From positions 122,098-186,097 of the forward strand of contig CAWFUG010000002.1 of the NCBI GenBank assembly GCA_963818965.1: 64,000 bases of DNA. Direction: 5' to 3'. Positions 21,001 to 27,000 of the stretch are shown one piece after another (within the stretch, counting starts at the first letter, position 1; each line of letters opens with the position of its first letter). Position numbers: made by a program. The DNA comes from an uncultured Verrucomicrobiae bacterium. GTDB lineage: Bacteria > Chlamydiota > Chlamydiia > Chlamydiales > Rhabdochlamydiaceae.

Positions 21001-24000
21001 CATTCATGCGCACCTACGACCTCCTCCTCAAGGAATCGGGTCTCATGAGCATCGAAGACCTCGCAGCGACACACCTCGGCGTCGACCTCTCGCAACCCTC
21101 ATTCTGGCAAGAAGCGATGGCCACAGCTACCCGCGATGTCGAGGCTTATCTAGAACTTCACTCATTAAATCGGATAAAATAAAATATGAAGACCACTTCC
21201 AAAAAAGCATTTGCCATTGCGGGAATCGGCCTCGGCGTCGTTGTTCTAGGGATGATTTGGTCCCTCGTGAATACAGCCCTCGCCTCTATCCAAAAAGATC
21301 TCTTTGCCTCTGTATTGCAACTGCAGTGGATGATGAATGTTTTTGGGATCTTCTTATGCGTTCCCCTTTTGACGATGGGCAAACTAGGGGATGCCTATGG
21401 GAGGAAAAAGCTGTTTCTTTGCGGACTAGCGATAGCCCTTCTCGCTTCTGTGCTTGGAGGCTTTGCCACCCGGATCGAGTTTCTCATCGCCTGCATGGGT
21501 CTCTTTGGATTGGCCGGATCGATGATCTTGCCTCTTTCTCAAGCTCTCCTCGTCCATCAATTTCCTGAACACCAAAAAGGAAAAGCCGTTGCCCTCTGGT
21601 CGATTTTTGCATCCTTGTCTCTCGCGTGCGGTCCGATTGTCAGTGGCTTGATTCTCAATTGGCTGGATTGGCATTGGATCTATTGGATCGACATCCCCGT
21701 CATCGCTATCGCTATCGTTACTCGTCTACTTTTTCGTGGAAGCAGAAAACGAATTCCACAAACCCCATTGCGACTGGATCGGCGTGGGACTGCTAGCTCT
21801 CATCGTCGGATCTCTTATCATGGGCATCATGCAAGGACCCACTTGGGGCTGGACCTCACCTGCAATCCTCGCCCTTTTTGCTCTATGGTTGGTCAGCCTC
21901 GTCGTTTTCATTTTATTGGAACAGAAAACCAAAACACCCCTCTTTCGCCCTGATCTCTTTTCTAACCGTTGTTTCCTCTTCAGCGCGATTCCAAATGGAT
22001 GCACCATCGGCTTTCTTTGGGTTTCCGTCTTTACCATTCCCCTCTACTTACAAAATATGCTTCGATTTTCGCCCCTTGAAACGGGATTTTGCCTCCTTCT
22101 TATCACCTTACCTGTTTTTTTCTTCTCAGTAACCGTCGGCAAATGGTACCACAAATGGGGAGCAAAACCCCTCATGCTCATAGGCTATACTCTCTTTTTC
22201 ATCGGGTTTCTTCTCCAGGCTTTCATCACTCCAAACCATTGGTCTCTTGGCATCGGTTCCGTTGCAATCGGCTTCGGCTGGGTCTTGACTTGGGGACCTT
22301 CCATCTCGAATGCCCTTTCGTCAATTCCCCATCGCATGGCCGGTATCGCATCTGGAATGTTCACAACGCTTCAGGAACTCGGCGCCATTCTCTCTCTTGC
22401 CCTCGCCGGCGTTTTTTTCGAACCGCCCAGCAAAACTACCTCCAGCCTCACATGGATCTCATCCGCTCTAGCCTCAATGCCGCTAAAGGGGGAACAAGCC
22501 TGGATTCACTCATCTCCGACCCCGCCGCTGTGGAACACCTACTAGGACCAGATGCCTCGATCCTCCCTTGGATTAACAACGCCTTCATAGCTGGCTATGA
22601 AGTCACCTTCCAGTTTTTGCTGGGCAGCTGCATCCTTGCCATTCTCCTCACCATTTTACTCCCTAAACACAAACCGGTTCGCACTACCCAGGAAAGTTAG
22701 AGTAGGCGGGGGATAACACCATCGGGACAACTGTTTCAACTGTACGATTTTTTCATAGGGTTGTACAAAGTCCTCCCGAACCAACGATGACCATTTTGTT
22801 GACCTCAACAAAATGGTCATCAGTAGTTCGTCCAAAATTTCGTCAAGCAATTTTTGCTTTTTCAATAACCTTATAGAAATTTCGCCATCCTTCACACTCG
22901 AGAAATTAAAGAAAAATTTTACACTAAAAACAGCTTCCCAAGCGCAGTCTTTTGATGGTATTCTCCAGAGCTAATAGAGGGATATGAGAGTCAGGAAGTA
23001 CTGACGGGAAGTATGCCTGAAGCCGGACTCGAACCGACGACCTCCGCATTACGAATGCATTGCTCTACCAACTGAGCTACACAGGCAAAACTGAGAGTGT
23101 AAAAAAAGGACTATTTTTGGACAAGAAAGGGATCAGGGCGATTGTGCTTATGGGAGGAGCGGGAGAGCGCTTTGCGAGCGACACTCCTAAGCAATTTCAT
23201 CGCCTACTGGGAAAAAAAGTTTACCTACACACCCTCGAAGCATTTCTCAAATCAGACCTTTTTGAGGAGATCCTCCTCGTTACCGCAACAGAGTGGATCG
23301 AAGAAGTGAGGCGAGAAATCCCCGCTTCCCCCAAAATCACCCTCATCGAAGGGGGCAAGACCCGCCAAGAATCCTCTTTTAAGGGGCTACTCGCCTGCGG
23401 CGCTGACACCCGAGTCGTCGTGATCCACGACGCCGTCCGCCCCTTTGTCTCGCAACAGATCCTCTTCCAAAATGTGCAAGGAGCCCTCGCTTTTCACGCG
23501 GTCGACACCTGTATCCCTTCTGCCGACACACTCGTCTTCGCCCCTGAAAAAGAGACCATCGCATCCATTCCGCCGAGAGAGCATTTCTTACGCGGCCAGA
23601 CCCCTCAGAGCTTTTCCTATCCTCTCATTCTAAAGGCACATCTGCATGCAGAGATGCAAAATAGCTCAGACGATTGTTCCCTAGTGCTCGCTCTAGGCCA
23701 TCCCGTCCACGTCGTGGAGGGGAGCGAAGCGAACATCAAAATCACCACCCCACTCGATCTCATCTTAGCAGAACAAATCAGCCGCCTCCACCTCCACTCG
23801 CTCTCTTCCTCTCCCCCCCTACACTCTCTAAAAAACAAACGGTTTGCGATTACAGGCGGAACCGGAGGTATTGGAAGCGCCGTAGCTCATCTGTTGCAAG
23901 AAGAGGGCGCAGAAACGATTCTCCTCTCGAAATCCTCCTCTCATTTCCCTATCGATCTCACCAATTCTTCTGCGACAAAAGACGCCTTCTGCAAAATCGG

Positions 24001-27000
24001 ACCCCTCGATGGGCTGATCAATTGCATCGGCCTACTAAAATTACAAGAGTTTCACAGTTTGACAGAAGAAGAAATCGATCTTCTCATTGCGACGAATCTG
24101 ACGAGCGTGCTCTACAGCTGCAAGGCAGCTCAACTCAAAGAGGGCGCGCACATCGTCAACCTAGCCTCTTCGAGCTACACGCGCGGGAGAAAAAAACTAC
24201 GCCCTCTACTCTGGAGCGAAAGCCGCCATCGTCAACTTCACCCAAGCCCTTGCAGAAGAGACGCCTCAGTTCCATATCAACACCATCGTTCCTCAGCGAA
24301 CAGAAACCGCGATGCGCAAGAACAACTTCCCCGATGAGTCTTCCTCCTCACTCCTCGATCCCTACGACGTCGCCAAAGAAATTCTCCTCCTCTTGAAACA
24401 GACCGTCACCGGCGCTGTCATCGAAGTGAGAAAAAAATAGAATTCCTTTGCGTTATACCGAACGTGACTCAAGAATCGGGATTGGGCCATGTCTATAGGG
24501 ACACCTCAGGTAATCCCCACTCCGATTTTTTATCGCGATAGGTATCGATGGGCAGTTGGACCAAGCAGGGATACTGCTCCCCATCGAGCCAGGCTACCAC
24601 TTGTTCTAAATCGGTTTTTGCCATTGCAGTACAGCCTGCTGTCCCCTTCCCCTCTCCAATGTGCATGAAGATCGCAGACCCTTTGCCAGGTGTGACCGGA
24701 TCGACATTGTGTTGCACCACTAACCCCAATGCATACACAGGGCCTATTTCGCGCATCTTTTCAGAGCTCTTCCAATCGGGCTCTACGATGGAATCTGTCA
24801 TGACGAACTGATTGTAGTACCTAGAACTTGGATCATCGACACATTCTAAATCAGCGACGATCGGCAAAAAGGGGATGTTCTTGGCAAAAGACTGATGACC
24901 CACATCTCCAAATGCAGGCCCCAGAAAAAAAAGACCAGCGGGAGACTTTCCATCCCCCTCTTTTTTGTGGGGGCTAGACTCTTGATCTGTAAAATCGCAC
25001 ACACCGCTTCCCCACGCCATACCCGTTCTTCCCAATGTCACAGGGACAGGAGAACCACAACACTCCCATGGAAGTGTCTGATTTGAGCGTTGGTAGCGGA
25101 AAAGCGTTCCCTCTACCGCATTCCAGTCGGAAGAGATGACCACCAGAAGTTGCAGGGCAATAGAGGGAATCATAGAAACTTATCCCCTATAGTTATAGAT
25201 CCCAGATAGATTGCGATAATACTCTTTGTAATCGAGGCCATAGCCGATCACGAAATGGTTGTCGATTTCAAAGAGAGCATAATCGGGGTAGTAAGCCGTC
25301 TTTCGGTTCACTTTTTTGACTAAGAGTACCAAAGACTTGAGAGTTTTAGGGTTCTTTTTTTGAAGCTCAGCAGAGACTCGAGAGAGGGTATTGCCCGTAT
25401 CGAAAATATCATCGATGAGAAGGACATTTTTGCCTTCGATTGCGAGCTCATCGATCCCAAAGAGGCTTAACTCTCCGTTCTTGGTCCCCCGTTTTCCATA
25501 GCTACTCGCCTTCACCCACTCTAAAGTACAAGGCATCTCCAACTGCCGCATGAGATCCGCAGCGAGAAAAACAGAACCCTTCAACACCATGACGAGAGTC
25601 AGTTCCTTGTCGCGGTATTCTTCGTTTAAAGCTCGGGCAACAGAAGCAATTTTCTGTGCAATTTCTTCATGGGAGATCAATTGTTCAAAATTGTCGATAG
25701 CATAGGTGGGAACACTCTGTTCAGAGGCTTGGTCAAATTGTGCGAGATCTGCGATTCCTTCGTTGGCGGATAGGCAGTTGAATCCTAGAGTCAGTGCGAA
25801 AAAGATATGCGTTAGAGATCGAAACATCGTAGCTCCTTAGTTGTTTAAGAACCAAGGGGATGGTGTCAAATTTTCCAGATCGCGTCAAGCGATTTTTACA
25901 CCAAGCAATCGCCCTAAACCTGACTTTTTTGCAGAGGAATGCGAAAAAGTCATGACTTTTCCGCATTTGCTTGCAAAATAGTCATATACCGCTTCCACCT
26001 CAAATCTCTATCGTTGTAAGAATTTCACAAAACAAACCCGTCGGGGACATGAGTGCCCGATGTCACGATGATGATCCCGTCGCGGATAAAGATGCCGTCC
26101 TTTTCATAAGTGCTTAAGTGATCTCGATTCACCAACTGAACGTTGTTGCCGACAGAGGCATGTTCATCGATGATGGTATTTTGGATCAGGCAGTGCTCTC
26201 CGATGGCGAGCTTTTTAGGCGAGCGCGCAGTTTCAGAAGGGTTACCCACTACAATAGTGTGGTGCAAAGTCGTCCCCTTCTCAACAATCACATTAACCCC
26301 TAAGACACTATCTGTGATCTCTTTTGCCTCTATCATGGAGCCTTCACTGAGGATCGATCGCTGCACGACTCCCCCCCTCACAAGAGGTCCAGGCAGAGAA
26401 TGGGGATAAGCATAGATCGGATTCGTCACATCGTAGAGATCCAATCGGTGCGCGATCTGCTGCGTTAGGGCTAAATTCGATTCAAAATAGGAGGTAATCG
26501 TCCCGATGTCTTCCCAATAATCCTTGTAAAGGTAGGCAACCGTTTTTCCTTTTTTTAGTTGCTTGGGGATCAGATCGCGCCCAAAATCATCTCCCTCCTC
26601 CTCTAATAGAGAAAAAAGAGCCTCTCGCTTGAAGATGTAAATCCCCATTGAGCCCAAGTAATGGGTCGCGTTCGGATGGGCGATGAGATGTCCCTTTAAA
26701 AAGTCGGGGGTAAGCGCGAATTGTTTTAAAATGGCGGGGTCAGAAGGCTTTTCAACGAAGTCACTGATCTCTACCCCTTTCTGAATTTTAAGCAATCCCA
26801 TCCGCTTTGCTTCCTTTTCCTCCACGGGCAGAGATGCGATCGTCAAATCAGCACCCGTTTGCTGAGCGAGCTCGAACATCTCCCTCAGATTCATATTATA
26901 GAGCTGATCCCCAGAGAGGATGAGAAAATATTCTGCAGGACAGGCTTTGAAGTGATTTAAATTCTGTCGTACCGCATCCCCCGTTCCTTTAAACCAGCTC

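Follow-up and report, generated by a model that had tools for sequence, protein, structure and literature searches.

Whether a chlamydia could make CDP-ribitol, and for what purpose, is the question raised by a gene in the Rhabdochlamydiaceae genome G000 that joins a cytidylyltransferase to a short-chain reductase (SDR). The gene lies in a 64,000-nucleotide window of contig C2 (contig positions 122098-186097), and window positions are used throughout. With moderate confidence we favour the reading that 23117-24440 encodes a bifunctional CDP-alditol synthase of the Bcs1/Acs1 type, most likely a CDP-ribitol synthase, that a break in its frame is an artefact and that TagF-like proteins are the likely consumers of its product.

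Gene structure and the frame break

The preliminary description had taken the open reading frame from ATG 23150 to 24337 for the gene and had read it as a fusion of IspD with a short-chain reductase. This reading frame exists on the + strand and the fusion stands, with Pfam matches near the earlier figures to IspD (PF01128, E 1.1e-46, residues 3-210) and adh_short (E 9.7e-15, residues 233-342; both numbered from ATG 23150), the cytidylyltransferase coming first and the SDR reductase second. The reading frame itself is not the real gene product but a mis-called version of a frame-broken gene, the true extent of which is ~23117-24440 on the + strand (Table 1). Judging from sequence, the start codon is probably TTG 23117 rather than ATG 23150. 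In an alignment of 15 sequences comprising the read-through product and 14 intact orthologues (A1), the conserved N-terminus I(R/K)AIxLMGGxGxRF starts upstream of ATG 23150, while AAGGA sits 8 nt 5′ of the TTG and the score on the NCBIfam profile NF001183 rises from 163.9 bits with the ATG to 169.7 bits with the TTG. In the same alignment the motifs GGxGxRF, PKQF, IHDxVRP, RGQTPQ and NIKIT are invariant in the cytidylyltransferase domain, as are GGxxGIG, N316, SSS340-342, Y353 and K357 in the SDR domain when the G000 copy is read minus one A.

Within the called reading frame the adh_short match ends at profile position 138 of 195; it picks up again in the +1 frame at 24195-24437 (profile positions 146-194, E 1.5e-6), where NYALYSGAKAAIVNF carries the catalytic YxxxK. 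The partial adh_short match reported earlier is thus explained by the gene being frame-broken in the assembly, which the preliminary description missed. As assembled, the catalytic Tyr and Lys of the SDR are out of frame, as are the final ~48 codons of the called reading frame, with the true stop being TAG 24438-24440; removal of one A completes the N-S-Y-K tetrad. When AGAA is taken as one step the translation reads GRKNYALYSGAK, and it lines up with the 14 intact orthologues with no gaps. Each of the 11 queries with intact orthologues, drawn from the loci of relatives, matches as two HSPs joining at 24186-24199.

Table 1. Features of the fusion gene in window coordinates
Feature	Position	Strand	Content	Basis
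5′ gene part	23117..24193	+	TarI/IspD-like cytidylyltransferase, linker, SDR until just before the catalytic Tyr	Pfam, NF001183, A1
A7 homopolymer	24190..24196	+	Frameshift site with one extra A	HSP junction, A1, soil contig
3′ gene part, +1 frame	24195..24440	+	SDR remainder with YSGAK (catalytic Tyr, Lys), C-terminus, stop TAG	Pfam, second HSP of the 11 queries, A1
Out-of-frame tail of called reading frame, not real protein	24197..24337	+	Reads LRPLLWSESRHRQLHP...	Orthologue counterpart absent

The break at A7 is probably an assembly error in the homopolymer, with the gene intact in the organism. When 150 well-conserved proteins of genome G023 (73-84% identity) were matched in G000, 134 were intact and 6 (~4%) were split across frames, with four of the six split sites at T5, A5, C6 or A6 runs; that most of them sit at short homopolymers points to error. 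In addition, a short-read contig from a soil metagenome (X3 record 23, 161 nt, window 24097-24258) reads A6, with one base missing at 24190 and no other differences, this being a single contig at a depth of 2.8 that may share a sampling campaign with the G000 assembly. We regard it as unlikely that the frameshift is real in the strain, such that the reductase is inactivated, as a pseudogene or as a null allele beside the A6 form, and no CDP-ribitol is made by this route. The assembly does read A7, the adjoining MFS transporter gene is also frame-split, away from long homopolymers, the reductase half is gone entirely in nine of the 40 relatives, and the gene is broken by a different poly-A frameshift in G002 and likewise split in G174. 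Against this stand not only the A6 contig and the frequency of split genes but also the state of the two halves, which apart from the break contain no stops and are well conserved (96-99% of the expected alignment), and the intact genes of 17 relatives. It is highly improbable that the run serves as a switch for phase variation, or that transcriptional slippage rescues it, so as to toggle a surface modification. Both A6 and A7 forms have been observed and a further genome has its copy interrupted at another poly-A run, but for a contingency locus A7 would be a short run, it does no more than encode the conserved RGRKN (G001 has GGGAAAAAGAAC there), homopolymer breaks also affect further conserved genes of the assembly, and a -1 ribosomal slip on the A7 run would lead into the wrong frame.

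Identity of the encoded enzyme

From its TTG start the fusion scores 169.7 bits on the NF001183 profile for D-ribitol-5-P cytidylyltransferase, above the cut-off of 166, and its N-terminal domain passes the ispD profile TIGR00453 marginally (183.4 bits against 181.3). The genuine MEP-pathway IspD proposed earlier is indeed a second, standalone gene, located on contig C9, which scores 203.8 bits on TIGR00453 and 86.1 bits on NF001183 and is by these profiles the better MEP enzyme. Sequence searches of the PDB with phmmer point the same way, the best matches being a Listeria protein (3f1c, 2.8e-37), Staphylococcus aureus TarI (6xhp, 3.3e-37) and Bacillus subtilis TarI (4jis, 1.1e-36), with the best true IspD weaker (5ddt, 1.1e-26). 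An AlphaFold model (pLDDT 86.2) gave human ISPD (4cvh), S. aureus TarI (35% identity) and 3f1c as the top Foldseek matches. The SDR half has generic FabG-like and glucose/ribitol dehydrogenase-like matches, with no specific reductase family found by profile, PDB sequence or Foldseek searches. Homologues at 56-62% identity carry the JGI name ‘ribitol-5-phosphate 2-dehydrogenase (NADP+) / D-ribitol-5-phosphate cytidylyltransferase’, a KEGG-based naming that places them, indirectly, in the Bcs1 orthologue group. Together these comparisons support a fusion of the Bcs1 type, in which a TarI-like cytidylyltransferase is joined to an SDR reductase and which is distinct from the MEP IspD.

A pathway can be drawn by analogy with characterised relatives, an analogy that extends to the substrate, to which of the two reactions comes first, to the enzymes that use the product and to the acceptor. 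The C-terminal SDR would reduce ribulose 5-phosphate from the pentose-phosphate pathway with NADPH to ribitol 5-phosphate, and the N-terminal TarI-like domain would then combine ribitol 5-phosphate with CTP to give CDP-ribitol. Both Rpe and 6-phosphogluconate dehydrogenase are encoded in the genome for precursor supply. The CDP-ribitol would most likely be used by small TagF-like GT-B phosphotransferases encoded elsewhere in the genome, which may add ribitol phosphate onto a glycan linked to lipid or LPS; that the alditol is ribitol, and that the acceptor is LPS or another surface glycan, is what we infer. G000 also encodes three WaaL/Wzy_C-family genes and ABC-2 transporters.

Candidate partners of the fusion

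The preliminary description had grouped the fusion with two TagF-like genes and a LicD gene as a kit for adding ribitol phosphate to a surface glycan. G000 does have the two PF04464 genes claimed, which score 63.3 and 45.3 bits (cut-off 22.1) and lie 9 kb apart on contig C3. The genes of the kit are scattered, with the fusion on C2 and LicD on C9. Both TagF-like proteins keep the catalytic His pair (CPHGNSDKG and K.HP) together with PTW and GDxSSxGYDF, and H101 and H218 are invariant in an alignment of 10 TagF-like sequences (A2). The best solved relatives by sequence are TarL, Bcs3 and Cps3D, all very distant (E 5e-5 to 8e-4), and the fold is GT-B, with Bcs3 (0.65) and TagF (0.64) giving the top TM-scores in Foldseek. 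At about 370 aa they match TagB/TarF-type enzymes in size. The roles of the catalytic His residues are described in the pertinent part of PMC10299916, where the residue three positions past the catalytic His is given as Pro in glycerol-P transferases and Gly in ribitol-P transferases (PMC10299916). Ser104 is invariant at this position in all 10 sequences of A2, the position having been matched by motif and not by structural superposition.

A functional link between the fusion and the TagF-like genes is partly supported. In G031 the fused gene, a TagF-like gene and two Glyco_trans_1_2 genes follow one another on one strand, all overlapping, while in G038 the cytidylyltransferase is followed by a TagF-like gene, an unknown gene and then GT1. 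TagF-like genes are present in 26 of 28 relatives with the enzyme against 2 of 12 without (n=40), and in 67/71 against 37/79 across 150 Chlamydiota genomes; counted by family the figures are 11/12 and 7/15 (one-sided Fisher p 0.018, kin not being independent). For the TagF-like genes the proposed kit has support from their position next to the enzyme gene in two further chlamydial families and from co-occurrence, but the range of TagF-like genes is wider than that of the enzyme. They occur in f19 (13/14 genomes), f22 (13/17) and f26 (4/4), families from which the enzyme is absent, and so cannot depend on the enzyme alone. Two f27 genomes have the enzyme and lack a TagF-like gene, and in a tree of TagF-like paralogues no single paralogue tracks the enzyme.

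The one LicD gene claimed for G000 is also present, with a Pfam match spanning only profile positions 3-78 of 227, but its place in the kit is not supported. It has no linkage to the fusion in G000 and co-occurs poorly elsewhere (outside the own family, 1/6 families with the enzyme against 3/10 without); the nearest LicD and enzyme neighbours are found in G014 alone, 2.2 kb apart. No match to the LCP ligase (PF03816) was found in G000, which is 87.85% complete, and none of 150 Chlamydiota genomes has TagD (TIGR01518) over the cut-off, the best G000 match being E 3.7e-8. A Gram-positive-style, peptidoglycan-anchored wall teichoic acid is therefore unlikely as the product.

Two other readings concern the consumer and the product. 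It is possible, but doubtful, that CDP-ribitol is made while the TagF-like proteins use another donor in a role that is older in chlamydiae, ribitol phosphate being transferred by LicD-like or other enzymes. This would fit the TagF-like genes of the 37 enzyme-less genomes, including f19, f22 and f26, with no canonical TagD over the cut-off in any of the 150 genomes, as well as the Ser at the specificity position and the LicD gene near the cytidylyltransferase in G014. The operon-like gene overlap in G031 and G038 argues against it, as do the poor co-occurrence of LicD and the copy number of TagF-like genes, mostly two per genome where the enzyme is present and mostly one where it is absent. 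It is quite unlikely that the enzyme makes another CDP-alditol (arabinitol, mannitol, glucitol or other), possibly by a CDP-ketose route in which the cytidylyltransferase would use a ketose phosphate before the resulting CDP-ketose is reduced by the reductase. Such routes are those of Streptococcus pneumoniae AbpA/AbpB and Mnp1/Mnp2 and of Campylobacter jejuni HS5.17/18. Identity to TarI is only ~35% and the SDR half is without a specific family match, and the comparison, made by profile, PDB sequence and Foldseek searches, does not separate ribitol from arabinitol, mannitol or glucitol. Against another alditol, both the NCBIfam subfamily and the closest relatives of solved structure belong to ribitol-5-P enzymes, the KEGG-based naming leads to Bcs1, and the fused layout of N-terminal cytidylyltransferase and C-terminal SDR is that of Bcs1 as outlined in PMC4017328. 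A CDP-ribitol synthase working with the TagF-like proteins remains the preferred reading.

Distribution and comparison with known CDP-ribitol systems

An orthologue is present in 22 of 24 genomes of the own family, Rhabdochlamydiaceae, and in 6 of 16 from other families, as had been claimed; on recount the 40 relatives comprise 17 with an intact full-length gene, 2 with a split gene and 9 with the N-terminal half only. Since these nine retain the cytidylyltransferase half alone, some lineages can do without the reductase. Across Chlamydiota, 71 of 150 sampled genomes have an orthologue. IspD-SDR fusions are common across many phyla, with ESM Atlas clusters sharing the two Pfam domains of the chlamydial fusion in Chloroflexota, Actinomycetota, Bacteroidota, Bacillota and Nucleocytoviricota, and the chlamydial proteins are already so named by NCBI and JGI. 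In agreement with the earlier literature check, no paper discussing a chlamydial CDP-ribitol synthase fusion was found in the literature searched.

Among characterised systems, TarI of S. aureus and B. subtilis W23 is the best solved relative of the N-terminal domain, whereas TarJ is a separate protein and, as set out in the relevant part of PMC4017328, belongs to another reductase family. The Gram-positive pathway also differs downstream, in its LCP ligase and TagD. The TagF-like proteins have the catalytic His, the motifs and the GT-B fold in common with the Bcs3 CroT domain, Cps3D and TarL/TagF, but are single-domain proteins, unlike multi-domain polymerases, and carry Ser at the Pro/Gly position given for glycerol-P and ribitol-P transferases in PMC10299916.

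The closest parallel is Haemophilus influenzae Bcs1/Acs1 (EC 1.1.1.405 / 2.7.7.40), with the same order of two domains. The likeness is judged here by architecture, the identities of 31.6% to Bcs1 and 31.3% to Acs1 being figures of the preliminary description. In contrast to Bcs1, the chlamydial fusion lies outside any capsule locus in G000, is frame-broken as assembled and has a predicted function. Bcs1 is presented as a characterised CDP-ribitol synthase in the section of PMC10299916 concerned, and the account in PMC4017328 gives it an N-terminal IspD/GlmU-like cytidylyltransferase and a C-terminal FabG-like SDR. Both Haemophilus and G000 are Gram-negative with a TagF-like protein, which in Haemophilus is the ribitol-phosphate transferase Bcs3 CroT, as that section of PMC10299916 has it.

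Limits and reading frame of the fused gene

The fused gene, which joins an IspD/TarI-like cytidylyltransferase to an SDR reductase, was called as a plus strand ORF that starts at ATG 23150 (or TTG 23060) and ends with a stop at 24337. Both domains named in the preliminary description were recovered (Pfam IspD at residues 3-210, E 1.1e-46; adh_short at residues 233-342, E 9.7e-15) and the gene is real, but its limits are wrong and it is frame-broken as assembled. In this ORF the adh_short match breaks off after position 138 of the 195-position profile, and the final ~48 residues are noise-like. 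The +1 frame from 24195 to TAG 24438-24440 reads NYALYSGAKAAIVNFTQALAEE... and matches adh_short positions 146-194 (E 1.5e-6), therefore holding the catalytic YxxxK. The two frames join in an A7 run at 24190-24196, where one four-base step yields ...SSSYTRGRKNYALYSGAK... The read-through protein aligns without gaps to 14 intact orthologues (consensus SSSYxRGRKxYAIYSSAK), with G346, K348, Y353 and K357 invariant, and every invariant motif of both domains is present. Likewise, 11/11 intact orthologue queries from relatives' loci gave two HSPs in adjacent frames meeting at 24186-24199, which together with the gap-free alignment indicates one extra A in the fused gene.

The annotated start is probably also wrong, TTG 23117 being a more likely start than ATG 23150. 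Conservation at the N-terminus (strand and glycine loop, IRAIVLMGGAGERF) starts upstream of ATG 23150, AAGGA lies 8 nt upstream of TTG 23117 and NCBIfam scores rise by ~5-6 bits with the TTG 23117 start, while TTG 23060, the longest ORF call, falls inside a tRNA gene (Table). The reading-frame shift and the conserved upstream N-terminus would place the true gene at ~23117-24440, and the practical lesson for the window is that the fused-gene call is wrong.

Table. Features in the window and elsewhere in the genome under study
Feature	Contig	Position	Strand	Remarks
MFS transporter	window	21186-22545	+	Frame-split; the two overlapping ORFs match MFS_1 profile 2-187 and 130-346; just upstream of fused gene
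tRNA-Thr(CGU)	window	23013-23087	-	Directly upstream of fused gene
DDE transposase	window	27424-28548	-	Downstream of fused gene
Neutral/alkaline ceramidase N-terminal-domain protein	window	28574-29932	+	Downstream of fused gene
Flotillin/SPFH protein	window	32319-33671	-	Downstream of fused gene
Two overlapping same-strand ORFs	window	35681-36839	-	Upstream ORF matches Beta-lactamase profile 51-179 only
TagF-like A	C3	25155-26258		PF04464
TagF-like B	C3	34266-35402		PF04464
LicD-like	C9	~395.6-396.9 kb		

Origin of the frame break

The A7 frame break is likely to be an assembly error. Small parts of the window were found in four public runs, three of them soil-metagenome runs from one study. 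Contigs from two of these were identical to the window at 23893-24105 and 23086-23263, while the third (window 24097-24258, 161 nt, depth 2.8) lacked one base at 24190, so that it has A6 and an uninterrupted frame, with no other difference. This support for A6 is one low-depth contig and the three runs may share a campaign with the assembly under study. The assembly was also checked against a complete relative (G023), 400 kb of which gave 263 ORFs of 200 aa or longer; 150 of these ORFs had a match at 40% identity or more in the genome under study, with 134 intact, 6 frame-split and 10 otherwise partial. At 63-84% identity the six frame-split genes are well conserved, and in 4/6 the junction falls at a T5, A5, C6 or A6 run (split-gene sites C2:3374-3459, C2:4952-4963, C11:427232-427912, C11:196928-196971 and C7:4618-4625). 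Homopolymer frame errors seem to affect ~4% of conserved genes. This pattern in a 12-contig, 2.24-Mb genome fits homopolymer indel errors, and given these apparent errors other gene calls in the genome need caution. In a smaller test, 216 proteins taken from the loci of relatives hit ~45 intact loci and the fused gene was the sole split, a sample too small to weigh. An ab initio scan in which one base was deleted or inserted at 9,198 homopolymer sites was uninformative, with ORF merges at 215 sites compared with 199 random positions and the target site missed.

That A7 is instead a real null or variant allele in the sampled organism is appreciably less probable, and phase variation or slippage at the run is very unlikely. 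The copy in G002 (C55, ~7255-7275) is frame-broken at another poly-A run (ATTATTAAAAAAATG, with A7 in place of the A8 required by the frame) and that in G174 is split near residue 280. The supposedly split copy in G001, a genome of the same genus, contains a run of 10 N at a scaffold gap and no frameshift. Programmed frameshifting was rejected, as the shift is found in no orthologue and a -1 slip leads to the wrong frame. Elsewhere in the window, the frame of the MFS gene changes at ~21730-21788, where there is no long homopolymer, and its homologues form one ORF each, of 456-525 aa. The MFS genes beside the relatives' orthologues of the fused gene are not orthologous to this split MFS gene. 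The pair of overlapping ORFs with a partial Beta-lactamase match (Table) may be a further frame-split gene.

Distribution of the enzyme and its gene partners

Among 40 relatives, 17 have intact full-length orthologues (46-59% identity), two were counted as split (G001 and G002) and nine have the cytidylyltransferase half only (G014, G004, G020, G005, G010, G017, G016, G008 and G038; 49-63% identity), the carriers comprising 22/24 genomes of the same family and 6/16 other families. In an even Chlamydiota sample an orthologue at E <= 1e-40 was present in 71/150 genomes, with sharp differences between families (f1 22/22, f5 18/19 and f23 17/17 versus f20 0/26, f19 0/14 and f22 0/17). The reductase half is also gone in G110, G128, G120, G150 and G158 of the phylum sample, and within one genus (g14) G014 retains the N-terminal half only, G129 and G143 having full-length copies. 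Loss of the reductase half with retention of the cytidylyltransferase half has happened several times, even inside one genus. No adjacent replacement reductase was seen in the reductase-less lineages.

Over 120 proteins in the databases, 426-492 aa long, share 56-66% identity with the fused protein, being named 'bifunctional cytidylyltransferase/SDR family oxidoreductase' by NCBI and 'ribitol-5-phosphate 2-dehydrogenase (NADP+) / D-ribitol-5-phosphate cytidylyltransferase' by JGI. ESM Atlas clusters with the same two domains come from Chloroflexota, Actinomycetota, Bacteroidota, Bacillota and Nucleocytoviricota, a cluster of 83 proteins being assigned to the last of these, the giant viruses. 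Giant viruses and many chlamydiae have amoebal hosts in common. This kind of enzyme is already known and common, and it is its meaning in chlamydiae that has apparently gone undiscussed. Literature searches for chlamydia with ribitol gave nothing topical among the matches listed, judged by title or abstract start, nor did chlamydia with TagF, while Rhabdochlamydia with teichoic and Chlamydiae with glycerophosphotransferase returned no papers.

The preliminary description had grouped the enzyme with TagF-like and LicD-type transferases as a kit for ribitol phosphate. For the TagF-like genes this coupling is moderately supported. They were found in 26/28 relatives with the enzyme versus 2/12 without it, in 6/6 versus 2/10 of the 16 other families (one genome each), in 67/71 versus 37/79 genomes of the phylum sample and in 11/12 versus 7/15 of its families (one-sided Fisher p 0.018, the kin not being independent). 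The co-occurrence is strong but one-sided, and the 37/79 enzyme-less genomes that carry TagF-like genes show these to be much wider than the enzyme. For LicD the coupling is not supported; outside the family of the genome under study it was found in 1/6 families with the enzyme versus 3/10 without. Canonical TagD was found in 0/150 Chlamydiota genomes.

The fused, TagF-like and LicD-like genes are scattered in the genome under study. In relatives TagF-like A and B are in tandem, in the conserved order GT4, MutY, small ORF, A and B followed by MreC and an aminotransferase, and here ~8 kb has been inserted between A and B. In most relatives mcsA-like (UVR motif) and mcsB-like (ATP:guanido phosphotransferase) genes immediately precede the fused gene (L031-L038, L044-L048), frequently sharing its strand with short intervening gaps, and the fused gene is usually near frr-pyrH-tsf-rpsB; no mcsA-mcsB pair adjoins it in the window. 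Direct linkage to TagF-like genes is seen in two other families. In G031 (C4, 4022-8702; L029) four genes overlap on one strand (the fused gene, a TagF-like gene, then two Glyco_trans_1_2 (PF13524) paralogues), a candidate compact operon for the whole modification; the two Glyco_trans_1_2 proteins matched no NCBIfam family. In G038 the gene order is cytidylyltransferase-only orthologue, TagF-like gene, unknown gene and GT1. The ceramidase-domain and flotillin/SPFH proteins downstream of the fused gene in the window represent eukaryote-like functions that may bear on host lipids.

Predicted envelope glycan and comparison with known systems

Envelope glycans of environmental chlamydiae have barely been characterised, and the main interest of the fused gene is an envelope prediction for these organisms that apparently has been undiscussed so far. 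It is possible, though doubtful, that most chlamydiae outside Chlamydiaceae (at least 12/27 sampled families) put ribitol phosphate on LPS or another envelope glycan via small TagF-like transferases, with reductase-less lineages obtaining from the host cell either ribitol 5-phosphate or some other alditol phosphate. If so, an obligate intracellular Gram-negative phylum would have teichoic-acid-type chemistry, and a phosphate-rich alditol substituent would be a new surface component with consequences for host recognition, surface charge and antigenicity, one that the 26-27 sampled genomes of the small-genome family f20 would lack. No LCP ligase was found in the genome under study, which has three Wzy_C/WaaL-family genes and ABC-2 transporters, and such a glycan, if it exists, is more likely to be lipid- or LPS-linked than wall-anchored. 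With intact orthologues at hand in complete genomes from several families, the prediction can be tested directly.

The TagF-like proteins keep both catalytic histidines invariant together with the other family motifs, and among solved structures they come closest to TarL, Bcs3 and Cps3D (E 5e-5 to 8e-4). A predicted model (pLDDT 84.1) has a GT-B fold with top TM-scores to Bcs3 (0.65) and TagF (0.64). That they are CMP-sugar transferases without the histidines was rejected, both histidines being invariant and the NCBIfam matches being weak ones to TarB/TarF/TarL. A tree of 29 TagF-like proteins gave two weakly separated paralogue groups, both of which tend to occur in enzyme-bearing families and one or other in enzyme-less families. 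At a specificity position described as Pro in glycerol-phosphate and Gly in ribitol-phosphate enzymes (PMC10299916) they have an invariant Ser (Ser104), favouring neither donor.

On sequence comparison and modelling, the N-terminal domain of the fused protein appears nearer to ribitol-5-phosphate cytidylyltransferases than to IspD of the MEP pathway. In PDB phmmer searches it matched TarI-type structures (3f1c 2.8e-37, 6xhp 3.3e-37, 4jis 1.1e-36) better than the best true IspD (5ddt, 1.1e-26), and Foldseek with a predicted model (pLDDT 86.2) placed human ISPD, S. aureus TarI (35% identity) and 3f1c at the top ranks. With the TTG 23117 start it scored 169.7 against NF001183 (ribitol-5-P CT; cut-off 166) and 183.4 against TIGR00453 (ispD; cut-off 181.3), versus 86.1 and 203.8 for the standalone IspD on C9. 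The reductase half matched generic SDR families alone. A supply of ribulose-5-P and NADPH is plausible because Rpe and 6-phosphogluconate dehydrogenase are present in the genome. Assignment as a putative CDP-ribitol (or CDP-alditol) synthase is well supported by homology, while the choice of ribitol over a different alditol, and which of the two reactions comes first, we infer. The domain order, cytidylyltransferase then FabG-like reductase, is the same as that described for Bcs1 of H. influenzae (PMC4017328), which is reported as a characterised CDP-ribitol synthase (PMC10299916).
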